DNA from: Flavobacteriales bacterium
Lineage (GTDB): Bacteria; Bacteroidota; Bacteroidia; NS11-12g; UBA955
Length of the DNA stretch: 64,000 bases
Direction of reading: 5' to 3'
Assembly (NCBI GenBank): GCA_040376005.1
Contig: JBEIRK010000001.1
Location: 12,150 to 76,149 of the forward strand
The notes under the pieces are model-generated. The model worked only from the letters and a program-made list of their open reading frames with translations, was not told the DNA's origin and made no database searches. The translations under genes and the position numbers were made by a program. Below are positions 1,014-63,375 of this stretch, in pieces. The number at the start of each line of letters is the position of its first letter. Position 1 is the stretch's first letter.

Positions 1014-4000
1014 TTATTGTTTAATGATTTTACCGCTAAAACTCGCCTTGCGGCCGTCTGCAGTAGTTAGTTCCACTTGGAATAAGTACATTCCATTTTC
1101 TACTGTGTACCCGTTTTCAATGGTACCATCCCATTGCAATCTGCTTTCAGTAGAGGTAATTTCCGTCAATTGTTGATCGCGTTCCACCAGGCGTCTGCCT
1201 TGAGCATCAAAAATGCGAATGGCCGCTATTACATCATTGCCTGCGAGATTGTGCGTAAAGGATAAGGTAACACCGTCTTGGAAAGGATTGGGATAGGCTT
1301 TGCTTTCAGAAATTCGGAAGGCGTCGGGATCCAGCACAACACAGGTAATCTCTCTCTCAGTAGAATTGTTATGGATGTCCCAAATTTTAAAACGGATTAC
1401 ATGTTTTCCAAAAGTCAATCCTTCTAATGGGAATTGCACTAAGCCGCCGCGGTAAGAATTTAAGTCATAGCTGAAATAGTCATTCACAATAAATGAAGTC
1501 TCTGCCTCTGTGCCCGGATCAAGTGTCACAGTCATATCGCGACCAATTCCTGCGCCTGTAGCATTAATGCCGCTTGGATCATATACTTTAGCTAGAAATA
1601 TGGCATTCGATTCTATATCTCCGCCATTTCTAAACAATGTGTCGTTCATAAATAAACGAACCACTGGGCCCGCTTCATCTGGAGAAATAGAAGACTCACT
1701 TCCACCAACAAGAAAGTGACCTGAACCACTTGCATCTGTAACATTATTGTGGGCATAGAGGTATAGTTTGCCACGTGCTACGTTGTACGCAATATCTTTG
1801 GGTACACTAAACACAATTTGAAAATCGCCGCCAATTACTGACACTTCACCTTTAAATATGTAACTCGTTTGATCCTTGAACGGGATTTTGATATTGTTTT
1901 GGTCATTATCCAAGGTATATCGGGTTTGGGGTTTGTCAAAAAACTTCACCCAAAGGTTGCCGTTAAAGTCCGTCATTTTACCGCCCGTTCTAGCCTCAAT
2001 ATGACCTTTCAAGCGCACCACAGAAAAGGCTTTCATGGTGTCTGAAAAGGCCTGCGCATCTTTCCCATTGATAGAATCCAAGACCACAGCATGCTCTGGA
2101 AATTGTAAGCGCATAGAAGGATCACCAAGTAAGGCAAATTTATTGTCCTCAGAGGTAGTAGAAGGTCTATTCTTCATCCGTTGGTAGATTTCACCAACGG
2201 TGGGCACAGGGTCTCCAGCATCTGGAAATCCATATTGTGTCCAAAAGTCATTGTTAATCTGTGAATTCCCACTTACATAAACCAAACGGGTTGTAGTTAG
2301 CAAGGCTATGGCACCTCCATTTGCATTTAACAGTGCCAATTCTCCCCCACTTTGTAAGTGTGGATTGTCGAATCGAGAAAACTCACAAGTTGCCGTGAAA
2401 AGCACAGGCATGCGGTATGGATTTTCCCAATTGTTGATCATGGGAACAGTAAGAACACCTTCCTGAGCCCATCCTTTTTCACCACCATGTCCTTGGTAAT
2501 TCAAGAGCAGCACACCATTATTCATGTATCGGTTAATGGCATTGCTTACATCAGGGTACTTTTCCGTATTTCCAGTGCTTTGCTGTTTATAGGCATCAGC
2601 ATACACTTTGTTAATCAACAAATCCGAGTGTTCCTGGTCAATTTCAATGGAATACTTCTCACTTTCATCTACAAATTCTCTCTCCCATTTGTCATCCACA
2701 TCATCACAAACGAAGGCCAATTCCGTTCTCCATGGTCCCAAAGACAAAGGCGATGCGTATCTCTTTAATTTCTGAACAACACCATTGGCTTCACTTTGCG
2801 TGCGGCAAGGAATTCTACCTATGGCCACCTTCATAATGCTCTTCCCATCTGCCGGATTTCCATGAATGGTATCCAAAAAGGCAAAAAAGTCATCCAAACA
2901 GAAGGTTTGAGACTTGTAATACGAATTCAAGTGGTACGAGGGGATGAAATTTGTATTTCCTTGCACGCGATTCTTCATATCATAGGAAGTAGTTCCCATG
3001 AGAAGTACATACTTTAATTTCCCTCCTAAACTGGCTGCTTTTTGGTATTCATCTCTGAGGTAATCTCTGATGGCTACAACATCTTGCATACCGCAGCTGT
3101 ATTCTTTGTAGATAGACGCTGGACTTACAACTTTCACTTTTAGGCCATTGTTGGTTCTTCTAAATTCCGCCAATTCAGAAGCAGCATTTTTAAAGTCGGG
3201 GTGTGAAATAATGATAAAATCCGCTGGGTCACCTGCAAGGATGTCCGCATTTTCAAGTGCACCAACAATTCCGGGTTTGAGGCAATTGGCTACAGAAAAT
3301 GCAACAAATGCCTTACCTTTATTGCTGCCAAAAGTTCGGAAGTAGGTGTAAGAACCTGCGTTTTTTGCGGGGATTGCGGCGGGTATCCGTTCATTTGATA
3401 TTTCCCAAACGAAAGGATTAGAACCTGCAATGCGTGTTTCGACCAAAGCGGTAGTTACAAAATAACTGGGATGTCGAAGTACGACAGGTCCATTATTGGT
3501 TTGAGCCGGGCGCAGTTGATTAACTTCAATAAAGTCCATCCATGCCAAACTTTGGATATTGGGTCTCACCAATTCCATTTTTACAGAAACTTTATCTGCA
3601 GGAGCTGCATGCATTCCTGAAAAAGTTGCCATTCTAAAGTCTTCAAAATCCTTATTTAGTGGAGAGAAACCTTGGGAATTCTTTTTCCCATTTACGGTTA
3701 TAGAAATCGAACCGGCCTCATTTACCATAGCCCCGGCATATGACACCTTTACATAGGCAGAATCTGCGCCATCTGAGGGCAAGGCCAACTCAAAGTTTCT
3801 TTCTAGGCCTTCATTTCCCAAGCGTTCTCCCAGCCATGTTCTGCCCATTTCAGCGGGATTAAAAATATCGGAATCGTGAAACTTCAGTGCGTAGTAGTCA
3901 TTGTGTGTAAATGTAGGCGCACTTGTAACTTCGGGTAAGGTCTGAATTCTTAGCCCTGGATCAGATCCAACACCGAGATAGAGGTAGCCTTCATCAGAGT

Positions 4001-4400
4001 AGAAATTCTTGGTATGTTCAAAATAGCCTGTATTGCGATTCAAGCTCCATTTAGTGTTACTCCCTGCATAAAACAGGAGAAAATCACCCAGATTGAATTT
4101 CCCATCGCCACCATCTTCCACCCAAATTGGGATTTGGGGCAAGCCACCTTCATGCAAGCCGTTGGTTTCTGGAAGCATTCCACATTGGTGACCACGCAAT
4201 TGAATAGACGCTGTATTGAGGGCATTGAGATCGAATCCGGCGGCCTGTAGATCCGCATACTCCAGCTTATATACACCTTCTGTGGGTATTCGCAGTTTTA
4301 CCCAGATACCAGTAGAAATAGGTCCGGGCGCGGCATCAGCGCTGCTAAACAGCAGGCTAAAGGCACAAGCAAAGACGTTTATAAAACGTTTTTTCAGCAT
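1014..4400 (-). CDS. porU: T9SS C-terminal signal peptidase PorU (peptidase C25 / gingipain family), 1128 aa
   Basis: Large secreted protein (signal peptide MLKKRFINVFACAFSLLFSSADA) in the PorU size range (~1100-1200 aa). It sits immediately upstream of the porV-like gene and beside gldJ. The catalytic residues were not verified. Confidence 0.65.
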   Translation of the reverse strand: MLKKRFINVFACAFSLLFSSADAAPGPISTGIWVKLRIPTEGVYKLEYADLQAAGFDLNALNTASIQLRGHQCGMLPETNGLHEGGLPQIPIWVEDGGDGKFNLGDFLLFYAGSNTKWSLNRNTGYFEHTKNFYSDEGYLYLGVGSDPGLRIQTLPEVTSAPTFTHNDYYALKFHDSDIFNPAEMGRTWLGERLGNEGLERNFELALPSDGADSAYVKVSYAGAMVNEAGSISITVNGKKNSQGFSPLNKDFEDFRMATFSGMHAAPADKVSVKMELVRPNIQSLAWMDFIEVNQLRPAQTNNGPVVLRHPSYFVTTALVETRIAGSNPFVWEISNERIPAAIPAKNAGSYTYFRTFGSNKGKAFVAFSVANCLKPGIVGALENADILAGDPADFIIISHPDFKNAASELAEFRRTNNGLKVKVVSPASIYKEYSCGMQDVVAIRDYLRDEYQKAASLGGKLKYVLLMGTTSYDMKNRVQGNTNFIPSYHLNSYYKSQTFCLDDFFAFLDTIHGNPADGKSIMKVAIGRIPCRTQSEANGVVQKLKRYASPLSLGPWRTELAFVCDDVDDKWEREFVDESEKYSIEIDQEHSDLLINKVYADAYKQQSTGNTEKYPDVSNAINRYMNNGVLLLNYQGHGGEKGWAQEGVLTVPMINNWENPYRMPVLFTATCEFSRFDNPHLQSGGELALLNANGGAIALLTTTRLVYVSGNSQINNDFWTQYGFPDAGDPVPTVGEIYQRMKNRPSTTSEDNKFALLGDPSMRLQFPEHAVVLDSINGKDAQAFSDTMKAFSVVRLKGHIEARTGGKMTDFNGNLWVKFFDKPQTRYTLDNDQNNIKIPFKDQTSYIFKGEVSVIGGDFQIVFSVPKDIAYNVARGKLYLYAHNNVTDASGSGHFLVGGSESSISPDEAGPVVRLFMNDTLFRNGGDIESNAIFLAKVYDPSGINATGAGIGRDMTVTLDPGTEAETSFIVNDYFSYDLNSYRGGLVQFPLEGLTFGKHVIRFKIWDIHNNSTEREITCVVLDPDAFRISESKAYPNPFQDGVTLSFTHNLAGNDVIAAIRIFDAQGRRLVERDQQLTEITSTESRLQWDGTIENGYTVENGMYLFQVELTTADGRKASFSGKIIKQ

Positions 4401-4506
4401 ACGAATGTGTAATTAACTGCAAATCTCCGGTAATATTGTGTCAGGTTTTTAAGACATTTGTCAAATTTCATGGAAAGAAAAAAATTTTTTTGCCAAATGA
4501 AACGTT

Positions 4507-4522
4507 TAACTTTGTAACTTTG
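4507..4522 (+). promoter_or_regulatory. Tandem Bacteroidetes -7-like promoter motifs TAnnTTTG (taactttg taactttg) about 17 nt upstream of the PorP/SprF-like start codon
   Basis: Matches the Bacteroidetes sigma-A -7 consensus TAnnTTTG. It lies in a divergent intergenic region between porU and the PorP/SprF-like gene. Confidence 0.3.
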
Positions 4523-4538
4523 TCTAACACCTAACTCT

Positions 4539-5543
4539 ATGCGCACAAGAATACTTTATCTGGGCAGTTTAGCAATTGCCGGACTTTTTACTCAAACAGC
4601 GAATGCACAGGATCCTGAGTTATCTCAGTACTACGCAGCACCTGTTTACACAAACCCTGCAATGGCAGGCACAGCGGTTTGTAATTATGGAGCAGCCGGC
4701 AGGGTAGCATTAAACTATCGAAATCAGTGGCCTGGTTTGCCTGGCACATTCCGATCTTTTGCTGCAAGCTGGGACCAACACATACCATCCATTGGTGGAG
4801 GACTTGGTGCCATGGTATTCACAGATATTGCAGGTTCAGGATTACTTACCACAACAACGGTAAGCGGTGTATATAGCTACCTGCTTCCTTTGAACCGCGG
4901 CAGATTGTTTATGCGTTTTGGCTTGCAAGGGTCTGTTACAAGCAAGAGCATCGATTTCAACAAGTTGAAATTTGGTGATCAAATTGTTCCAACCCAAGGG
5001 TTTGTGAATCCAACTGCTGAACAACAGCCAAGCCAGAGCATTACCTATCCTAATTTTAATGCAGGATGGATTATGTATACGAGCAAGTTTTACATTGGCG
5101 TTGCATCGCACAACATTATTGAGCCAAACTGGAGCTTTTACCAGAACCCTGATGAGGTATTGCCTCGCAGATACACCATCCACACAGGAGCTGTAATTCC
5201 ACTTACCAAGAGCAAGTTTGACGATGCGGCGATTTCACCAAATGCGTTGTTCATGAAACAGAGAAACTTCACACAGTTGAATTTGGGCTTTTATGCAAAC
5301 AAAGGTGCCTTAGTTAGCGGTTTGTGGTTCCGTCAAACATTCGGACAATACAGAAACTCGGATGCAATCATTATGTTGATTGGATTCCGCAAAAACCGTT
5401 TCAAATTTGGTTATAGCTATGACTTCACCGTATCTGATGGAAGAAGCGCAATCCCTGCCAGTCATGAAATTAGTGCAACGATTGACTGGTGTGTACCTCC
5501 TGGCAACAAGCCATTCAAACCTTTAAAATGTCCTGAATTCTAA
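4539..5543 (+). CDS. PorP/SprF-family T9SS-associated outer-membrane protein, 334 aa
   Basis: Signal peptide followed by QDPELSQYYAAPVYTNPAMAG, which matches the conserved N-terminal PorP/SprF signature (Q-x-P-x-F-S-Q-Y...NPA..G). The size and beta-rich composition fit the family. Confidence 0.6.
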   Translation: MRTRILYLGSLAIAGLFTQTANAQDPELSQYYAAPVYTNPAMAGTAVCNYGAAGRVALNYRNQWPGLPGTFRSFAASWDQHIPSIGGGLGAMVFTDIAGSGLLTTTTVSGVYSYLLPLNRGRLFMRFGLQGSVTSKSIDFNKLKFGDQIVPTQGFVNPTAEQQPSQSITYPNFNAGWIMYTSKFYIGVASHNIIEPNWSFYQNPDEVLPRRYTIHTGAVIPLTKSKFDDAAISPNALFMKQRNFTQLNLGFYANKGALVSGLWFRQTFGQYRNSDAIIMLIGFRKNRFKFGYSYDFTVSDGRSAIPASHEISATIDWCVPPGNKPFKPLKCPEF

Positions 5544-5566
5544 GCGATTAGAAAATAAAATCTTAG

Positions 5567-5598
5567 AAAAAGGTTTGGTTTAGGCCAAACCTTTTTAC
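5567..5598 (+). terminator. Rho-independent terminator (aaaggtttgg-ttta-ggccaaaccttttt) after the PorP/SprF-like gene
   Basis: Perfect inverted repeat followed by a T-run. Confidence 0.5.
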
Positions 5599-5616
5599 GT
5601 TTAGAGAAAAAAATCA

Positions 5617-5624
5617 ATATATTT
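5617..5624 (+). promoter_or_regulatory. Candidate -7 promoter motif (tatatttg) upstream of gldJ
   Basis: Matches TAnnTTTG about 40 nt upstream of the ATG at 5663. Confidence 0.25.
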
Positions 5625-5662
5625 GCGAAATAAAATAAGTCAAACTACGTTATATAAAACGA

Positions 5663-7210
5663 ATGACAACTAAAAGCTTTGTTAACTACGGCCGTATTTC
5701 AGCAATAGCGATAGCGATCGCTGTTTCCGCATGTGGCAAGAAAGAGGCAAGCCGCACAACGGGTCAGACCTACAATGATCCTAAATGGGGTGGATTTGCC
5801 AACCAAAAGTACAAAGGTCAAGAAACAGGTCCAGGCTTGGTTCTGATTGAAGGTGGATCTTTTGTAATGGGTTCTACAGAAAAAGAATTGATGTTCAACA
5901 ACGACAACGTTGAACGCAAAGTGACTGTAAACTCCTTTTATATGGATGAAACTGAGGTGAGCAACCTCCAATACCGGGAATATGAGTATTGGTTGCAACG
6001 CACCTTTATCGATTATCCAGAAGTATATCAGACCCACTTGCCAGATACTCTCTGCTGGAGAAGTAAATTGGCTTACAACGAGCCATTTGTAGAATACTAC
6101 TACCGCCACCCTGCTTATAAGGACTATCCTGTTGTAGGAGTGAATTGGCAGCAAGCTGCTGACTTCTCTGCGTGGAGAACGGATCGCGTAAATGAGCAGA
6201 TTTTGGATCGTGAAAAGATTGTGAAGTTCAACGTGGCATCTGATGCGATGAACGAAACCAACTTTAACACCAGAGCTTACTTGGCAGGCCAGTATGAATT
6301 TTCTAAGAAGGGCAAGAAGCCTGTAAAAGACTATTCAAAAGCAAAGAACAAAGACCAAAAGCGTTACAAAGTAAAAATGGAAGATGGTGTTCTTCTTCCT
6401 GATTATCGCCTCCCAACAGAAGCTGAATGGGAATATGCTGCACAAGCAAACATGGGTGAGACCCAATTTGACAACGTAGAGCAAAAGAAAATTTACGCTT
6501 GGAACGATTATACCATTCGTATTAAAGATGGTCATGAGAAAGACCGTGGTAAAATCCAAATGAACGTGTTGCGTTCAAAAGGTGATATGGGTGGTATTGC
6601 TGGTGGCAACTTGAATGATGCTGGTTTTATTACTACACCTGTTTACAGCTACTGGCCAAACAGCTATGGCTTGTACAACATGTCGGGCAACGTAAGTGAG
6701 TGGACCATGGACATCTACCGCCCCCTTTCTTTGGAAGATATGGACCAGTTCATGCCATACCGTGGTAACGTGTATCGCACTGTATTGTTGGATCAGTATG
6801 GCGCATTTGCAGATAAAGACAGTTTGGGCCGTTTGCAATACCGTGAGGTAACTGCAGAAGAAAATGCGAAGCGTCGCAACTACAAAAAAGCGGATAACAT
6901 TGGTTTCAAAGATGAAGAGAACTATAACGACGGTGAAATGACCTACGAGTATGGTGTTACTTCACTGATTAATAACAAGGCACGCGTAATCAAAGGCGGA
7001 AGCTGGAATGACCGTGTGTATTGGGCATCTCCTGGCACACGCCGTTACTTGGACGAAGAGCAATCTTTATCAACCCTTGGTTTCCGTTGTGCAATGATTC
7101 GTATTGGTGCTCCAGTGGGTAACAGCAAGAAAAAATACAACAGATTGCCGAGCTCTGGTATCGATAAGAAGACCATTCGTAAGAGCAAAAAGAATAGCAC
7201 AAGAAGCTAA
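5663..7210 (+). CDS. gldJ: Gliding motility lipoprotein GldJ (FGE-sulfatase/SUMF1-like fold; GldK/PorK paralog family), 515 aa
   Basis: Lipobox (AVSAC) followed by GSFVMGS...VVGVNW...GNVSEWT, typical of the GldJ/GldK family. There is no gldLMN downstream, so GldJ is more likely than GldK. gldJ is adjacent to porU and porV in F. johnsoniae. The C-terminus has a Lys-rich tail. Confidence 0.6.
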   Translation: MTTKSFVNYGRISAIAIAIAVSACGKKEASRTTGQTYNDPKWGGFANQKYKGQETGPGLVLIEGGSFVMGSTEKELMFNNDNVERKVTVNSFYMDETEVSNLQYREYEYWLQRTFIDYPEVYQTHLPDTLCWRSKLAYNEPFVEYYYRHPAYKDYPVVGVNWQQAADFSAWRTDRVNEQILDREKIVKFNVASDAMNETNFNTRAYLAGQYEFSKKGKKPVKDYSKAKNKDQKRYKVKMEDGVLLPDYRLPTEAEWEYAAQANMGETQFDNVEQKKIYAWNDYTIRIKDGHEKDRGKIQMNVLRSKGDMGGIAGGNLNDAGFITTPVYSYWPNSYGLYNMSGNVSEWTMDIYRPLSLEDMDQFMPYRGNVYRTVLLDQYGAFADKDSLGRLQYREVTAEENAKRRNYKKADNIGFKDEENYNDGEMTYEYGVTSLINNKARVIKGGSWNDRVYWASPGTRRYLDEEQSLSTLGFRCAMIRIGAPVGNSKKKYNRLPSSGIDKKTIRKSKKNSTRS

Positions 7211-12241: not shown

Positions 12242-13345
12242 CTAAAAATATTTTCGAAATGTGTAATGTATTTTGGTTGTATGGGCACCCAATGAGACCA
12301 ACATGCTCAGCATTTTAGGATTGAAATCCCCTATCCAGGCTAATTCTGCGACTTTAATCTGCGGTGTATTTTTGTAGCCTTCATAACATTTCATTATCAA
12401 CCCTGTTTCAATACCTAAGTTTTGAAAGTTGGGTACAACCCCAAAAATAATGCCCCGAACTTTATCAATATTGCCTCGGCGCAGTATGAATTGCAACTTA
12501 TTCCACCAGCTCATTTTGCCCTTAAAACTTCTGAACAACTGATTGACCTCAAGCATGCTGATGTAGAAACCGATAGGTCTTTCACCGGCATAGGCGAAAA
12601 CGGCAAACTGCTTCATCAAAACTGGTTTTAGCTGTTTTAACCGCGTCATAACCATATCTTGGCTCAAGGGTTTAAAATCTTCATGATGGGCCCATGCTTC
12701 GTTATAAATAGTAGCAAAATCGCGGGCAAACTTTTCTTTTTGAGCCCAATCAATAGTTACAAATGTATACTTACCGCTTTGCATCACACGGTCAGATAGC
12801 TTCGTGAAGCGTTCAAAATTGAACTGATCTTCGGTGATTTCAGAAGTAGATTGTTCAATTTCTTTTTCAAAGCCATAGGCTTCAAAGAAGGCCCTGTAAT
12901 AGCTGGGATTGTAATTTTCTCTATAGGATGGATAGGTATGATTCTCTACCAACAGTCCCCAGAAAGTATCTCTATCTCCAAAATTAACAGGCCCATCCAT
13001 ATAGGTACATTCTTGCCCAATCAGCCATGTTTTACAGGCATCAAAAAGGGCAAAGGCAGCTTCTTTGTCATCGATACACTCAAAATACCCCATACCGCCC
13101 ATCTTACCTTCCTTTTTAATGCGGTAAAATGCAGCTACCCGTCCGATAGCAATGCCATCTTTTTTCAAAAGAAAACGCACTGCATCGCCATCTTTAAATG
13201 CAGGATTGGCAGTCCTATCAAATACATGCTCCACATCTGATAGCATCGGTTTTACATAAAGCGGGTCCTTGAGATACATGATATCCTGAACCGCATGAAA
13301 TTCAGCAATTTCCTGAGCACTGGATACTTGGACAAGTTGAAACAT
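12242..13345 (-). CDS. Hypothetical protein, possibly a GNAT/FemAB-like acyltransferase fold, 367 aa
   Basis: Size and composition only; no catalytic motif confirmed. Confidence 0.3.
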   Translation of the reverse strand: MFQLVQVSSAQEIAEFHAVQDIMYLKDPLYVKPMLSDVEHVFDRTANPAFKDGDAVRFLLKKDGIAIGRVAAFYRIKKEGKMGGMGYFECIDDKEAAFALFDACKTWLIGQECTYMDGPVNFGDRDTFWGLLVENHTYPSYRENYNPSYYRAFFEAYGFEKEIEQSTSEITEDQFNFERFTKLSDRVMQSGKYTFVTIDWAQKEKFARDFATIYNEAWAHHEDFKPLSQDMVMTRLKQLKPVLMKQFAVFAYAGERPIGFYISMLEVNQLFRSFKGKMSWWNKLQFILRRGNIDKVRGIIFGVVPNFQNLGIETGLIMKCYEGYKNTPQIKVAELAWIGDFNPKMLSMLVSLGAHTTKIHYTFRKYF

Positions 13346-13374: not shown

Positions 13375-14511
13375 CTATGGGTTAGGATTCAGGGATATCT
13401 TTTCATCCCCTTCTTTCCAAGCCGTATAGGTTATGATGAATTGGAACATTTCGTCGGTAGCCCGCATGCTGGCTCCTCCGAATTCCAGTCTCTCTCCCAC
13501 CCACTGCGGCGGATCGAATGGGTTGTTGGGATTCGCGCGGGTGTTGTCAAAAGTTGCGATAGCCACAATTTCACTGCCCCTGGGCACAGGCACCATATGG
13601 GTAAAGGTGTAAAAGTATTGCCAGCGAAAATCCCACTTGGGAATGCTGATCAGCGGAATTGTATCTCCATTGGGTTTAATGGCGTAGGCCAAGAAACGGG
13701 TACCTAACATGTGCAAATGCGGGTTTATGGTGAGAATGGAGATATTCTCACCGACCATGAAGCGCGTGCTATGCTCTGTTTTCTTTCCCGGAGGAATAGA
13801 AAGTGGCGGAACAATGGGACTCACCCCATTGGTACCTAGCATAATTTCGCTGGTGGGGCGCTGCGGTGCTTTGTCCGTGAAAAAGAGATTAATCACACTC
13901 TTATCCATCACTTTTCTATCAGAAGGACCATAATGCATGTCGTTGCCGATGAATGCAAACTTGCGGCTCAAACGCACCGTGCCGATACCCGCAGGATATG
14001 CAGTGCCTAACACTCCGGGCAAATAGTTTACAGCACTGTGGATACGAAATGGCTTGGAGCCATCGTCATTTAAGAGATTCAATTTCAAGAAATCCTGGTC
14101 ATACTCCCCTTGTGTTATTTCTACTTTCAAAGGACTTTCCATCAAATTGGATTTCAAGTCGAAGGGATAGAGTAGCAAATGGCCATTAAAATGGTGCACC
14201 AAATCGGGGACCCCGGCCACAAACTCTGCGGCTTGCAGGAAGGTGTCGTGCGGCAACAGGCCTGGAATTTTAAAAATAAAAAAGCGGTCTTTCCCATTGG
14301 GCATGAGCAGCACAGAGTCTAAATGCAGCACCATATCTGGTTTGCCAATATTGCTTCTCCACTGCGGCAACTCCAACTTGGGGAGCTTGTCTATAGGTCC
14401 TTCAGGGGCGCCTTGTTTTTGCCAGTCGGCAATCATTTGAATCTCAGCATCACTCAGGTATTTTTCACCTATAAAATGTGAATAGTTTGGGTCGGCAGGC
14501 CAGGGAGGCAT
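13375..14511 (-). CDS. PHM/DBH-like copper type II monooxygenase-like domain protein, 378 aa as called; probably the C-terminal part of a cytochrome c fusion
   Basis: Putative Cu-ligand signatures: VHHFNGH (HH at residues 106-107), NPHLHMLG (HxHxLG) and DEMFQFIITY (EMxxxxIxY). The ORF has no signal peptide of its own and begins 8 nt after the cytochrome c ORF stop, in the +1 frame. Confidence 0.45.
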   Translation of the reverse strand: MPPWPADPNYSHFIGEKYLSDAEIQMIADWQKQGAPEGPIDKLPKLELPQWRSNIGKPDMVLHLDSVLLMPNGKDRFFIFKIPGLLPHDTFLQAAEFVAGVPDLVHHFNGHLLLYPFDLKSNLMESPLKVEITQGEYDQDFLKLNLLNDDGSKPFRIHSAVNYLPGVLGTAYPAGIGTVRLSRKFAFIGNDMHYGPSDRKVMDKSVINLFFTDKAPQRPTSEIMLGTNGVSPIVPPLSIPPGKKTEHSTRFMVGENISILTINPHLHMLGTRFLAYAIKPNGDTIPLISIPKWDFRWQYFYTFTHMVPVPRGSEIVAIATFDNTRANPNNPFDPPQWVGERLEFGGASMRATDEMFQFIITYTAWKEGDEKISLNPNP

Positions 14512-14518
14512 ACTTCTG

Positions 14519-14752
14519 TTACCCGTAACCCGAACAATGGTTTTGAGCTTTTTTTTTAACCTCTAAATAGCTCGTAAGCGGAAATGGGGCTGCGCCACTT
14601 TCTCTATGGCAAGGGGAACAATTCTTAAACACCAATGGTGCTATATTTTCTGTGAAGGTATATTGTTTCCCAAAGAAACTGCAGGATACTGCCAGAGACA
14701 ACGCCGCGATAAGAAAGAAAATCGTCCTTAATTTCATGGTTCTATAAAGCAA
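14519..14752 (-). CDS. Signal peptide plus c-type cytochrome domain (CSPCH heme-binding site; PSCyt-like IAPLVFKNCSPCH), 77 aa as called; likely the N-terminus of a frameshifted fusion
   Basis: MKLRTIFFLIAALSLAVSC signal peptide, then the CXXCH motif. The ORF ends just after an A9 homopolymer (coding strand) at + coordinates 14549-14557. Confidence 0.5.
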   Translation of the reverse strand: MLYRTMKLRTIFFLIAALSLAVSCSFFGKQYTFTENIAPLVFKNCSPCHRESGAAPFPLTSYLEVKKKAQNHCSGYG

Positions 14753-15285
14753 CCGTATGCTTCTGTTTTGCGCGTATAATCTACTTTGTTCTGGAAGATC
14801 GCATCCAAGGCATTCTGCAGATAGAAGATGCTGGGCTTATTGCGGTGTTTGCCCGTTTCAAAGGCATAATTATCCCAAGCGCCTTCGTACAATTTCTCAG
14901 AATTGGCATTCACTACACAAACATAAGGGGTTACAGTCACATCAAAAAGCCGTGCCATGCTGCCATCATCAAAGTATTCCTTGCTGCTAAACGGATTGCG
15001 CGAATTCCCAGGCTTTGCTTGAATCACACTTACCAATTTCCAATTCGGTTTTTCTTGCAGTAAAGCATCTATACGGGCAATTTCAGGTCTGTAGTATTTA
15101 CACAAGGGACAATCATCGGAGAGAAACACAAAAACTGCAACTTTTGTACTTGTTTCCAAGCCCAATTTTGGATGGTAAATAAGACTCGGCTTGGTATTGC
15201 TACACGCGCTGAGTGTCGCCAATAGCAGCAATGTCGCAATTGCGAAAAAGAGAGCCGTTTTAATGCGATTACTGAACACTTTCAA
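14734..15285 (-). CDS. Thioredoxin-fold lipoprotein (CPLC active-site-like motif), 183 aa
   Basis: Lipobox LSAC, then VAVFVFLSDDCPLCKYY, which is TlpA/ResA/thioredoxin-like. Its ends overlap both neighbouring genes in the operon. Confidence 0.5.
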   Translation of the reverse strand: MKVFSNRIKTALFFAIATLLLLATLSACSNTKPSLIYHPKLGLETSTKVAVFVFLSDDCPLCKYYRPEIARIDALLQEKPNWKLVSVIQAKPGNSRNPFSSKEYFDDGSMARLFDVTVTPYVCVVNANSEKLYEGAWDNYAFETGKHRNKPSIFYLQNALDAIFQNKVDYTRKTEAYGCFIEP

Positions 15286-17404
15286 ATGCTTTTACAAAGC
15301 GCACACCCAAGTTTTGGTAAGGCGGAATGTAATCATACCACTTGTCATTATTCTTCAACTTCTTATCTAAGGCTGCCCAAAGGGTAACCCAGTTTACCTC
15401 ACCTGTTCCGTCGCGCATCATCTCACACATATCTTTCAAGAGCACATCATTTACCGTCCAAGTACCTACCTGTTTGCTACTCACGATTTGCGCATCAGAA
15501 GCATTGTCCAGCACGCGTGCAATATTCAAGTAGCCCCCACAGCTGCCTAAAATGGCGATTTTCACATTATTGGTAAGCAAATCCACCGTTCCTGTAAGGT
15601 GGTAACTATGCCCACGATGCACCACAATATCCGGATAGCGTTTTTCGATTTCAAACAGTTTGCGCAGTACCTCGAGACCCATTTCTGATTGGGGCTTGTT
15701 GCAATACAATACAATTTTCTTGCCTTTGGTAGACTCGATGCGCGTGTAATGCGCCAATTCAGTCACTTTCCATCCTACAGCAGTTTTGAACTGTTGTACA
15801 AACCTCACATAGGCTGCTTCTCCATCTTCGTCATCATAGAACACATGCTGTTGCACGTTTTTATTATCGGGAAACAATAACCCTGCTTCTACTTTATCCA
15901 ACAGAGGAATATCAAAATTGATGCTTTTACCGGTAATGATTTCAGGCATACCTCCTGCCAATTTGAAGAGCAATCCATACAACCTCGCGCCGTATGTATT
16001 TCCGTTGGCATAACAGCGGTACAATTCAAACTTCAGCCGATCACTCATTTTTTCGCGCAGGGTACTGTCCGTAATTGAACCGAAAATATCTGCTACTTCC
16101 ACAGCGGGTTCAAGGTTGCCACCCGTGGTTTCGAGGCCTTTTACAATCTCATCAATAAGCAAATCCTTCTCCCCTGCTGTCATGGTGTTCAACACCTTTT
16201 GCATGGTATTGTATCCTGCGCACATTTGAACAAATGTTCTAAATTTATTCCAGCCTTGTTTTTGAAAAAACACGTACATAGAACTATCTGTTCTGCGTTG
16301 CATAAAGCGATTAAACAAGCCTAAGAAAGAGGAAGTAAAAATCTCATCGCGGCTATAGACCATAATATTGTAGAGTTCTACGTCGGATAGTTTTGAAGCA
16401 ATTGCAAAACGCACTTCGTCTTTTTCATCGTGCAACAAATTGATTTTTCGAATCACCTCCAAGCTGTGTTGGGTTAACTCTTGATCAACCGAATAAACGC
16501 CCAATATTTCTTTACTGGCTCGCAGCGCGCATAACTTTTTGAACCATGCATTTTTATTCTGCTGCAGAATTTCACTGCTGTCTATAGACATTCCGCGGTT
16601 GTACACCAGTTCTATATTGGTATAGCCAGAGCTCGCCCGACCATATTCTTGGAATATCTCATAGAGTTTTAAAACAACAGGATCCTTGCTCATTTGCAAG
16701 GTATTGTTTACAGGGTGTGAGGTACCAAAAAACTGTTTTACCGCGTTGGGGTCAAAGTGGGCAACAGTTTCAAGGACCGATAAAAACCAGGTTTCCCTAT
16801 TGTAGTCGAGGTATTTGGTAAGCACATCATAGGGTTTTTTACCCGCTGCGAAGGTGAGAACATCGCGGGCATAGCTTCTTTTAACAAAATACGGAATACA
16901 ATCCAGAGCTGTGAGTACATGATTCTTGAGCAGTTCCATGTCTTTTTGTGCGCCTAGGTTCAGGCTGAGCTTCTCGACCATGGAAAGATACTGTTCGAAA
17001 TAGGCCAAGTATCTCACATTGTTCTTATTGATATTTTGCAGGACAATACTGAGTGCTGCGTAAAAAGGTTGTTTTTCTTTTTCGGGAAAGGACGTTGCGG
17101 CTAAATTTTGTTGAATCCTATCTACGGTTTCAAAGAATATTTTCTTGCCGCGTACATTTTGTGCCATGGTATTAAAGAGCACCATGCTGTCCTTTTTGCC
17201 GTCGATAAGGTCAATCCGTTCTTGTTGCGTGTTGCATATCTCCACCATGGTTTCCACGGATTGAGCACGCAGAACTCCCGTGTTTCCTAGGAAAACTGAT
17301 CCAATCGCGATTGCGCATACTGCCACAATACGATGCCGCAAGCCACGGATATGTTGAGTGAGTGTTTGGTTCCAGCCTGAGGTATTTCTATGCATACATC
17401 GCAA
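15269..17404 (-). CDS. Large exported hypothetical protein (up to 711 aa) with a C-terminal caspase-like His...Cys signature
   Basis: The called start is a TTG. A later TTG or GTG gives M-RHRIVAVCAIAIGSVFLGNTGVLRAQS, a typical signal peptide. The C-terminal DIVVHRGHSYH...(24 aa)...KIAILGSCGGY resembles the hydrophobic-strand+H-G and hydrophobic-strand+x-C arrangement of clan CD peptidases (C25/CHAT/caspase-like). Confidence 0.35.
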   Translation of the reverse strand: MRCMHRNTSGWNQTLTQHIRGLRHRIVAVCAIAIGSVFLGNTGVLRAQSVETMVEICNTQQERIDLIDGKKDSMVLFNTMAQNVRGKKIFFETVDRIQQNLAATSFPEKEKQPFYAALSIVLQNINKNNVRYLAYFEQYLSMVEKLSLNLGAQKDMELLKNHVLTALDCIPYFVKRSYARDVLTFAAGKKPYDVLTKYLDYNRETWFLSVLETVAHFDPNAVKQFFGTSHPVNNTLQMSKDPVVLKLYEIFQEYGRASSGYTNIELVYNRGMSIDSSEILQQNKNAWFKKLCALRASKEILGVYSVDQELTQHSLEVIRKINLLHDEKDEVRFAIASKLSDVELYNIMVYSRDEIFTSSFLGLFNRFMQRRTDSSMYVFFQKQGWNKFRTFVQMCAGYNTMQKVLNTMTAGEKDLLIDEIVKGLETTGGNLEPAVEVADIFGSITDSTLREKMSDRLKFELYRCYANGNTYGARLYGLLFKLAGGMPEIITGKSINFDIPLLDKVEAGLLFPDNKNVQQHVFYDDEDGEAAYVRFVQQFKTAVGWKVTELAHYTRIESTKGKKIVLYCNKPQSEMGLEVLRKLFEIEKRYPDIVVHRGHSYHLTGTVDLLTNNVKIAILGSCGGYLNIARVLDNASDAQIVSSKQVGTWTVNDVLLKDMCEMMRDGTGEVNWVTLWAALDKKLKNNDKWYDYIPPYQNLGVRFVKAFESVQ

Positions 17405-32505: not shown

Positions 32506-32601
32506 TGCGAAATTTTGCATTATTAAGTTGCAATAATAGTTATCATCCCTTAGAATTCAAAAAAAAATCGAATTATTTTTTGATTACCACGGGTTTATAT
32601 T

Positions 32602-54144: not shown

Positions 54145-54798
54145 TTAATTGTTCTTATTGTTTCCAAGGTCAAAGCGAAAACCGCAGTAAATCACATTAT
54201 GATAGGCACCCGTGCTGTAGAAAATAGAATTGGAGGCGCCTATGGACCGAATAGAGTTAATGCTGTACTGAGATTCTATAAAAAAGCGTCCTAGATTTCC
54301 GGTTTTATATTCTGCAAAAGCAGCGCCCAATACGTTCACTTTTCTTAAATCTGTATCTAGATTTAGAATGACACCTTCTTTCTCAGTTGCCTGCAACAAA
54401 TATGAGGTTCTAAATCCCAGTCCAAAAGAAAATTTATGATAGTACCTCACAATATAAATTGGGATATCAATGGATTGCATAATCATGTGAAAGGCACCAT
54501 TTCCTGGATTTTCAGGATCAAAGGGCCTTCTGCTGCCGCGAACAGAAAACTCAGCCCCACTGAGGTAGGACCAACCACCGCCCGAAGCAGCGCCAAGGCC
54601 TTGGCCCACAAGATATCCTACACCCATACCAAACTTATTGTACCCCGATGCATTGTCGCCGTCTATTTGACAAAAATTAGCACCAAGTCTTAGACCGCCA
54701 TAGAATTGTCCTTTATCAAATTGCGCACTGAGTGTGGGGAAGGCTGAAAAAAAAAGTGCAAAACAGCAATAGTATTTCAAAATGCTCAGTTTTCTCAT
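54145..54798 (-). CDS. Small outer-membrane beta-barrel (OmpW/porin-like) protein, ~217 aa
   Basis: Signal peptide MRKLSILKYYCCFALFFSAFPTLSAQ, alternating aromatic/Gly-rich strands and a C-terminal ...CGFRFDLGNN. Confidence 0.5.
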   Translation of the reverse strand: MRKLSILKYYCCFALFFSAFPTLSAQFDKGQFYGGLRLGANFCQIDGDNASGYNKFGMGVGYLVGQGLGAASGGGWSYLSGAEFSVRGSRRPFDPENPGNGAFHMIMQSIDIPIYIVRYYHKFSFGLGFRTSYLLQATEKEGVILNLDTDLRKVNVLGAAFAEYKTGNLGRFFIESQYSINSIRSIGASNSIFYSTGAYHNVIYCGFRFDLGNNKNN

Positions 54799-63304: not shown

Positions 63305-63375
63305 TGTATACAAATATATAAAAAAAAAGGCAGCTTTCATTCGAAAGCCGCCTCTATATTTGAATCGAAAAAGTG

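Follow-up and report, generated by a model that had tools for sequence, protein, structure and literature searches.

The window, a 64,000-nucleotide stretch of a Flavobacteriales contig, carries on its minus strand two adjacent open reading frames (ORFs) as deposited: one of 77 aa (14519–14752), which encodes a signal peptide and a CSPCH motif, and one of 378 aa (13375–14511). The first-pass annotation had placed them 8 nt apart; the gap is in fact 7 nt, and the two ORFs lie in different frames. They are the halves of a single gene, split by a 1-nt insertion within a run of nine A (A9; T9 on the plus strand) at 14549–14557 on the minus strand, where the assemblies of relatives read AAGAAAAAG. 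Deleting one A from this run restores an open frame of 453 aa, which spans 13375–14737 (minus strand; start and stop codons verified) and encodes a lipoprotein with a c-type cytochrome domain followed by a core that resembles peptidylglycine alpha-hydroxylating monooxygenase (PHM) and dopamine beta-hydroxylase (DBH). The true start is the ATG at 14737, and it overlaps the stop codon of the gene upstream by 4 nt, as ATGA. That gene (14734–15285, minus strand) encodes a thioredoxin-like lipoprotein with a CPLC motif and a C-terminal GCFIE, and through the ATGA overlap it is apparently translationally coupled to the enzyme gene.

The case for one gene, not two, is made by three observations taken together: the 453-aa frame that opens on removal of one A, the existence of an intact metagenomic protein of the same length (P0001, 453 aa) that is 99% identical to the repaired protein and shares its gene context, and the presence of the CXXCH and MPPW motifs in a single frame in 80 of 80 other related loci. 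The apparent start of the 378-aa ORF is explained by the ORF finder, which takes the codon for Met76 (14509–14511, minus strand) as an initiation site. Rather than initiating translation, the ATG at 14511 encodes the Met of the invariant MPPW motif, present in all 143 relatives that cover the site and presumed to be the distal haem ligand. For annotation purposes, the split ORFs are to be merged and flagged as frameshifted. A look-up returned no gene position on record for the window's own 378-aa product. The second 378-aa member of its cluster (P0414) was considered as an independent frameshift and rejected, its contig being truncated and its DNA in frame. Similarly, 12 loci that seemed to lack CXXCH proved to be artefacts of non-ATG starts and contig ends in ORF calling.

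The repaired protein begins with a lipoprotein signal peptide, MKLRTIFFLIAALSLAVSC (14681–14737, minus strand), as read from the sequence. Its lipobox residue Cys19 is almost invariant in alignment A1, and the predicted model has an N-terminal helix at residues 2–20. A monohaem c-type cytochrome domain follows at residues ~27–112 (14401–14659, minus strand), and it is inside this domain that the frameshift falls. The haem-attachment motif C40-S-P-C43-H44 (14606–14620, minus strand; codons verified) is invariant in alignments A1 and A3, and all 140 distant relatives covering the site have it; MPP is likewise invariant among relatives. Judged by its motifs, the domain has what is expected of a c-type cytochrome, namely CXXCH, a candidate distal Met and predicted periplasmic export. 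Its fold resembles that of PccH from Geobacter sulfurreducens (PDB 4RLR), and it matches the Pfam families Cytochrome_CBB3 and Haem_bd. Unlike these, the domain is an N-terminal module within a larger enzyme, and its Pfam scores all fall below the curated cut-offs. The label 'PSCyt-like' given at first reading was not borne out, as PSCyt1 was matched in Pfam neither by this protein, even at E ≤ 10, nor among the 22 families matched by 43 homologues.

A linker of ~20 residues joins the cytochrome domain to a core of two beta-sandwich domains, as in the copper type II ascorbate-dependent monooxygenases (PHM/DBH/TBM). The first domain (CuH domain; residues ~133–290; 13867–14340, minus strand) is like the N-terminal domain of PHM according to hhalign and fold matches. 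The second (CuM domain; residues ~291–440; 13417–13866, minus strand) is like the PHM C-terminal domain according to hhalign and to Pfam PF03712, which covers residues 327–400. The motifs first remarked upon in the 378-aa ORF lie at the positions claimed for them: VHHFNGH from residue 105 (H106/H107), PHLHMLG from 264 (H265/H267) and DEMFQFIITY from 353 (M355). A third CuH ligand, H193 in NDMHYGP, had not been named. In the numbering of the repaired protein, the CuH ligands are H181/H182 (codons 14191–14196) and H268 (13933–13935), corresponding to H106, H107 and H193 of the 378-aa ORF, and the CuM ligands are H340 and H342 (codons 13711–13719) and M430 (13447–13449), corresponding to H265, H267 and M355. 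Alignment by hhalign pairs H181/H182 with PHM H107/H108, H268 with H172, H340/H342 with H242/H244, and M430 with M314, so that the predicted His and Met ligands fall column for column on the CuH and CuM sets of PHM. Beyond the ligands, Q373 (13618–13620) aligns with PHM Q272, and PHM E313 is likewise matched. The CuH ligands are present in 143–146 of 150 distant relatives, while H340 and H342 are found in 148 of 148 and M430 in 116 of 117; all six occur together in 111 of the 112 distant cluster representatives.

The assignment of a PHM/DBH-like domain stands, with PF03712 above its cut-off, the best fold matches and the ligand alignment all in agreement. Of the two Pfam families that had been proposed for checking, Cu2_monoox_C (PF03712) was matched, if marginally (23.3–23.8 bits against a cut-off of 23), and PF01082 was matched neither by the window protein nor by 43 close homologues. 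All 43 of those homologues match Cu2_monoox_C at E ≤ 1 (best 1.2e-8), some of them below the cut-off, and distant relatives give sub-threshold PF01082 scores (19.5–23.4 bits against a cut-off of 30). Profile–profile alignment does span the N-terminal (PF01082) domain, and hhalign of the bacterial against the eukaryotic PHM profiles gives a probability of 99.0% and an E-value of 6e-18. In fold comparison, an AF2 model of the protein (pLDDT 88.6) matched PHM and DBH far better than anything else. At the level of sequence profiles, the similarity to PHM far exceeds what chance would produce. A search of PDB sequences with the family profile gave no match even at E ≤ 10, and the kinship with PHM is visible only at the profile–profile and fold level. 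NCBIfam holds no model for the enzyme, for its partner, or for either of the flanking uncharacterised genes.

It had been left open whether the cytochrome and the monooxygenase are fused or tightly coupled; they are fused, and relatives are single polypeptides of ~450–470 aa. The homologues number more than 2,700, of which the best 120 listed are mostly of 430–485 aa. The expectation that such an architecture would be unusual in bacteria did not hold, as a HMMER search (E ≤ 1e-3) recovered 10,831 clusters (50% identity), and relatives are encoded by at least 588 of the stretches matched in a collection with one genome per species. Of the 80 genome loci retrieved, nearly all are labelled uncultured Bacteroidota, and many come from lakes and rivers. 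Some relatives bear TPR, PKD, Kunitz, EF-hand or T9SS sorting domains. A full-text literature search on bacterial PHM/DBH homologues and their combinations with haem or thioredoxin found no paper on the haem c–PHM architecture, although subscription journals were thinly covered and this absence is no proof. This is a very large and by no means rare family, and we found no experimental study of it.

At least 62 of 77 loci have the thioredoxin-like partner gene directly upstream of the enzyme gene, and a domain of the same type is fused to the enzyme, at either its N- or C-terminus, in 20 of 150 distant relatives. The window's partner protein scores 24.6 bits on Thioredoxin_2 (cut-off 27) and is also sub-threshold for Redoxin, whereas the fused homologous domains reach the Pfam cut-offs for both AhpC-TSA and Redoxin (132 bits for P0147). 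The AF2 model of the partner is of low confidence (pLDDT 37.6), and a word-indexed search with the partner's sequence returned three homologues. The protein has in common with TlpA/ResA-type thioredoxins and AhpC-TSA/Redoxin proteins a thioredoxin-fold sequence signature with CPxC and predicted export as a lipoprotein. It differs from them in that the second Cys of CPxC is replaced by Ser or Ala in around one third of the neighbours, and in the conserved Cys of a C-terminal GC[FY]IE motif. We take it to be a dedicated partner, with a probable role in maturing the haem or copper sites through thiol-redox chemistry, or in dealing with peroxide. A partner of redoxin type would be equally compatible with maturation and with a reaction on peroxide or thiols.

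The reading that we favour, with a probability of roughly 60%, is that the gene encodes an exported lipoprotein in which a monohaem cytochrome c and a PHM/DBH-like core form a haem-fed copper monooxygenase with a dedicated partner, and that the window copy has been broken by one extra A. In the known PHM/DBH mechanism, CuH is the electron-transfer site and CuM is the O2 site. Here, the haem would take up electrons one at a time from the pool of respiratory cytochromes in the periplasm and hand them to CuH, replacing supply by ascorbate or by the DOMON/cytochrome b561 system of animals; CuH would then reduce CuM, where O2 would be activated and a C–H bond of the substrate hydroxylated. That substrate is presumably not peptidylglycine. 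We infer the delivery of electrons from haem to copper and the direction of their flow, the activation of O2, the hydroxylation chemistry and the role of the partner from what is established for PHM and DBH and from the example set by cytochrome c-tethered copper nitrite reductases.

The A9 interruption most likely reflects misassembly or else a private mutation that arose very recently. Were the frameshift real, the strain would carry a newly made pseudogene, such that the family is functional elsewhere and this locus makes no working enzyme. We consider this possible, if on balance unlikely. The deposited sequence does have a broken frame at the run, and the contig's 378-aa product is on record in public collections. 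The A9 indel is also the sole indel across an 8.6 kb alignment at 98.6% identity, and the other homopolymer runs of at least 8 nt in the window break no gene visibly, indicating that homopolymer errors are not widespread in the assembly. Furthermore, the run was lengthened by a G-to-A change, which would make true slippage likelier. However, the gene shows no second lesion, and dN/dS against the related locus L001 is 0.05 overall and 0.04 downstream of the shift. Three further assemblies from the same population read AAGAAAAAG at the run and are in frame, so the frameshift is private to the present assembly, and the gene is intact in 80 of 80 related loci. A single homopolymer miscall fits the data equally well. 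Metagenome scans gave no match to the DNA around the A run, in a collection that is incomplete, since the JGI contigs L082 and L083 hold a matching string, and from which the frequency of the A9 allele cannot be inferred. The window copy is probably misassembled or very recently broken.

A different and more doubtful proposal concerns the chemistry. The copper core may not be a haem-fed C–H hydroxylase at all, and may instead oxidise a thiol or other reductant, with the haem as the exit for electrons to the respiratory chain, or may be a peroxide-dependent enzyme that works with the peroxiredoxin/thioredoxin-like partner. The AhpC-TSA/Redoxin type of the partner domain would agree with this, as would its conservation of just the first Cys (CP motif) and the C-terminal Cys, which brings it nearer to a peroxiredoxin or one-cysteine redox protein than to a classical CXXC thioredoxin; the substrate-binding residues of PHM are also not kept. 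Against it stands the strongly conserved His3 plus His2Met set, which is characteristic of the noncoupled binuclear copper monooxygenases that activate O2, and we know of no member of the PHM/DBH fold that works as an oxidase or dehydrogenase.

Two readings of the split itself fare much worse. Bacterial RNA polymerase is known to slip on runs of nine A, and the run here coincides exactly with the frame break, so a functional split could be imagined in which programmed ribosomal frameshifting or transcriptional slippage on A9 yields the full-length protein, or in which the run serves for phase variation. This is very improbable, as relatives do not keep the slippery run: in the related loci, all of them in frame, the longest stretch of A in the segment is usually 4–6 and at most 8, and the nearest relatives read AAGAAAAAG. 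Least likely, and already contradicted, is that the locus makes two translationally coupled products, one a small cytochrome c and the other a separate PHM-like enzyme that begins at ATG 14511, since the map of two ORFs 7 nt apart, the second with an ATG, is outweighed by the position of that ATG at the invariant MPPW Met within the cytochrome domain, by the lack of the distal ligand and last part of the fold from the 77-aa ORF and of a signal peptide from the 378-aa ORF, and by relatives that are all single polypeptides.

Returning to the haem-fed monooxygenase, its wider implications can be stated more tentatively, at somewhat less than even odds. The family may represent a large bacterial group of ascorbate-independent, respiratory-chain-fed noncoupled binuclear copper monooxygenases with a built-in haem c donor, a dedicated thioredoxin/peroxiredoxin-like partner and periplasmic or cell-surface substrates, and animal PHM and DBH could have in it their bacterial counterpart and perhaps their evolutionary origin. 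The noncoupled binuclear copper monooxygenases of the textbooks, namely PHM, DBH and tyramine beta-monooxygenase, have to our knowledge been studied in eukaryotes only. How electrons enter CuH and cross ~11 Å of solvent to CuM is still debated. A bacterial homologue with all the ligands and a tethered haem would show this chemistry wired to the respiratory cytochrome pool and not to ascorbate. If the proposal is true, it would also offer a one-polypeptide system in which electron entry at CuH and CuH-to-CuM transfer could be triggered and timed through the haem, as the tether would permit optical or electrochemical triggering of electron injection. Given the abundance of the family and its occurrence in lake and river Bacteroidota, the substrate could reveal an oxidative step in the aquatic turnover of carbon or peptides that has so far gone unrecognised.

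Compared with the PHM catalytic core (rat PAM residues 45–356; PDB 1PHM, 1SDW, 3MLL), the bacterial core shows just 14–18% identity. The PHM residues R240 and Y318, which bind the glycine carboxylate, correspond here to N338 and I434, and PHM N316 to Q432; position 338 is variable across the bacterial family. None of the disulfide cysteines that are invariant in the PHM alignment (C70, C87, C183, C249 and C271) is kept in the bacterial proteins, where the sole invariant cysteines are C40 and C43 of the haem motif. With R240 and Y318 replaced and these disulfide cysteines gone, the chemistry could differ from that of PHM. The bacterial family also has motifs of its own, WDFxWQxxY and DNTxxNPxNPxxPP, and combines a fused c-type cytochrome with a lipoprotein anchor, whereas PHM is an ascorbate-fed enzyme of secretory granules.

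In human DBH (PDB 4ZEL) and the DBH/TBH/MOXD branch, the extra domain is a DOMON domain, with a C-terminal dimerisation domain after it; here, the extra domain is a class-I-type monohaem cytochrome c, predicted to bind its haem covalently. A functional analogue is provided by the cytochrome c-tethered copper nitrite reductases, such as those of Ralstonia pickettii and Pseudoalteromonas haloplanktis, in which a haem c is fused to a two-copper enzyme and electrons pass from the haem to an electron-transfer copper and on to a catalytic copper within one polypeptide. The present enzyme would appear to share this design principle. It differs in that the nitrite reductases have an unrelated fold, a cupredoxin trimer with T1 and T2 copper, and in that their reaction is the reduction of nitrite, not the activation of O2.

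The enzyme gene is present in the window as two reading frames on the minus strand, a 77-aa ORF (14519-14752) encoding a signal peptide and a CSPCH motif, and a 378-aa ORF (13375-14511) that carries VHHFNGH, PHLHMLG and DEMFQFIITY. The two lie in different frames and are separated by 7 nt, not 8 nt as reported in the first-pass annotation. A run of nine A (14549-14557, minus strand) occurs shortly before the stop of the 77-aa ORF. Deletion of one A merges both ORFs into a 453-aa protein with its start ATG at 14737 and the junction ...SYLEVKKKLKTIVRVTGNRSMPPWPADPNY..., so that the ATG at which the 378-aa ORF seems to begin encodes Met76 of an MPPW motif within the cytochrome domain. Where the annotation had allowed for haem and copper domains that were either fused or tightly coupled, relatives encode a single fused polypeptide.

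Protein searches returned more than 2,700 homologues of the repaired protein, the best 120 of which are mostly 430-485 aa long with 83-100% query coverage. The best match, at 99% identity, is the intact 453-aa metagenomic protein P0001. The contig that encodes it, L001, shares its neighbouring genes with the window and has a DNA identity of 98.6% across 8.6 kb, and the sole indel in this alignment falls at the A-run position. L001 and two JGI contigs from the same population read in-frame GTT AAG AAA AAG CTC, whereas GTT-A9-GCTC is seen in the window alone. Exact-pattern scans of a metagenome contig collection gave no match, yet the JGI contigs L082 and L083 contain the matching string, so absence is not implied by that result. 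Against L001, the enzyme gene has a dN/dS of 0.05 overall and of 0.04 in the part downstream of the break, values close to those of neighbouring genes. A conserved programmed frameshift is rejected, as CXXCH and MPPW share a single frame in all 80 related loci drawn from one-genome-per-species contigs, where the longest A run in the corresponding segment is at most 8. The same shared frame, together with the length of the homologues, excludes a two-protein arrangement. From the P0001/L001 match, the in-frame relatives and the low dN/dS, we conclude that the split either arose in assembly or is a private mutation of very recent origin, and that the copy in the window is broken. Three further A9 runs in the window (32559-32567, 54747-54755 and 63320-63328) are intergenic or at gene starts and visibly break no reading frame; the enzyme gene is the only A-run frameshift seen there.

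At the level of profiles and predicted fold, the relationship to PHM is clear. The Pfam model Cu2_monoox_C (PF03712) scores 23.3-23.8 bits, narrowly above its curated cut-off of 23, and is matched by 43/43 aligned homologues at E≤1 (best E 1.2e-8). The expected N-terminal counterpart did not follow: PF01082 has no match in the window protein and only weak matches in distant relatives. A search of PDB sequences with the family profile also gave no match. Using hhalign, the 43 homologues aligned to the rat PHM sequence (verbatim from PDB entry 5WM0) with 89% probability (E 2e-6), and 51 diverse bacterial members aligned to 34 eukaryotic PHMs with 99.0% probability (E 6.2e-18), the 255 aligned columns extending across both PHM domains. 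An AlphaFold2 model of the enzyme protein (pLDDT 88.6, pTM 0.82) bore out the proposed PHM/DBH fold, with rat PHM and human DBH filling the first 30 Foldseek matches (best E 4.8e-13).

The histidine and methionine motifs were found at the 378-aa ORF residues originally assigned (H106/H107, H265/H267 and M355; add 75 for repaired numbering), and in the hhalign alignment they pair, as had been proposed, with PHM copper ligands. By this pairing, the predicted CuH ligands are H181, H182 and H268 (in NDMHYGP), equivalent to PHM H107, H108 and H172, while H340, H342 and M430 would serve CuM as H242, H244 and M314 do. E429 and Q373 are paired with PHM E313 and Q272; PHM Q170 corresponds to D in the window protein and to Q in most distant relatives. 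Among 150 such relatives (representatives of 50%-identity clusters, 30-58% identical to P0001), all six ligands are kept in 111 of the 112 that cover every position, and CXXCH and MPP are invariant wherever covered. The CuM domain also has conserved family-specific motifs, WDFxWQxxY and DNTxxNPxNPxxPP. In contrast, the PHM residues that hold the peptidylglycine carboxylate, R240 and Y318, are replaced by N338 and I434, PHM N316 is replaced by Q432, and the bacterial family conserves no disulfide cysteine of PHM. While the fold and metal sites appear PHM-like, the loss of R240, Y318 and N316 makes a glycine-extended peptide an unlikely substrate.

The architecture had been thought unusual in bacteria, but it is abundant, with 10,831 clusters at E≤1e-3 (1,145 at E≤1e-30) and relatives encoded in at least 588 matched stretches of species-representative genomes. 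No account of a bacterial enzyme joining a cytochrome c to a PHM-like core turned up in the open-access literature searched. Members are labelled ‘hypothetical protein’, ‘mono/diheme cytochrome c family protein’, ‘c-type cytochrome’ or by Pfam domain name. Nearly all of the 80 loci are labelled uncultured Bacteroidota, a few falling under Rhizobium, Bifidobacterium or Sphingomonadales bin labels. Other relatives carry added TPR, PKD/Ig, Kunitz, EF-hand or T9SS sorting domains.

Directly upstream lies a thioredoxin-like lipoprotein gene (14734-15285, minus strand; CPLC, C-terminal GCFIE), the stop of which overlaps the enzyme start (ATGA). Of the 77 loci in which enough DNA is available on this side, at least 62 encode a homologue of this partner directly before the enzyme gene and in the same orientation; in several others it lies no more than a few kb away. 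In 20 of the 150 distant relatives, an HMM of these neighbouring proteins recognises an N- or C-terminal domain (E down to 1e-58) that Pfam assigns to AhpC-TSA/Redoxin. Such fusion in either order strongly supports a functional partnership. The partner family conserves the first Cys of CPxC (the CP motif) and the Cys of the C-terminal GC[FY]IE; about a third of neighbours (~20/62) have S or A in place of the second CPxC Cys, an unusual pattern for a thioredoxin-fold protein, seen in the upstream genes of L002-L081.

The wider window is an ordinary Bacteroidota chromosome (gatB, mutS, miaA, T9SS genes). Some distant enzyme relatives carry a T9SS sorting domain, and a T9SS/gliding cluster occupies 1014-7210 (PorU-like Peptidase_C25 with FlgD_ig, PorP/SprF and a GldK-like FGE-sulfatase-domain protein). 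A 367-aa gene directly downstream of the enzyme (12242-13345, minus strand) follows it in 36/81 loci; its product could be assigned to no family in Pfam, NCBIfam or PDB. This gene shows 0 differences from L001 in 1104 nt, against a dS of ~0.07-0.12 in genes on the other side, suggesting that a recombination tract or sweep of recent origin stops close to the 3′ end of the enzyme gene. Upstream of the partner-enzyme pair, a 711-aa ORF (15269-17404, minus strand; called as 638 aa in L001) matches no known family; of the closest loci, only 11 have it conserved at this place. In L033 (3875-5367) and ~10 other related loci, the pair is preceded by three small, divergently oriented genes, one for a putative ECF-type sigma factor (a provisional label); these may hint at envelope-stress regulation.

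Electrons enter PHM and DBH at CuH; O2 and substrate bind at CuM. In the present enzyme, a single lipoprotein, the c-type haem domain immediately precedes the CuH domain, and the most economical reading is that the respiratory cytochrome pool would reduce haem c, which would pass electrons to CuH and on to CuM, replacing supply from ascorbate or DOMON/cytochrome b561. Opposite electron flow, or a peroxide-dependent reaction, is a possible though less likely alternative. C-type haem requires periplasmic maturation, and the partner could keep CXXCH or copper-site residues reduced during this process, like TlpA and ResA; alternatively, it could deliver copper or handle peroxide. The catalytic core is of a known type; the novelty, as far as our searches reach, lies in the tethered haem and the obligate redoxin partner. 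For electron transfer from haem c to copper, the cytochrome c-tethered copper nitrite reductases offer a parallel design.
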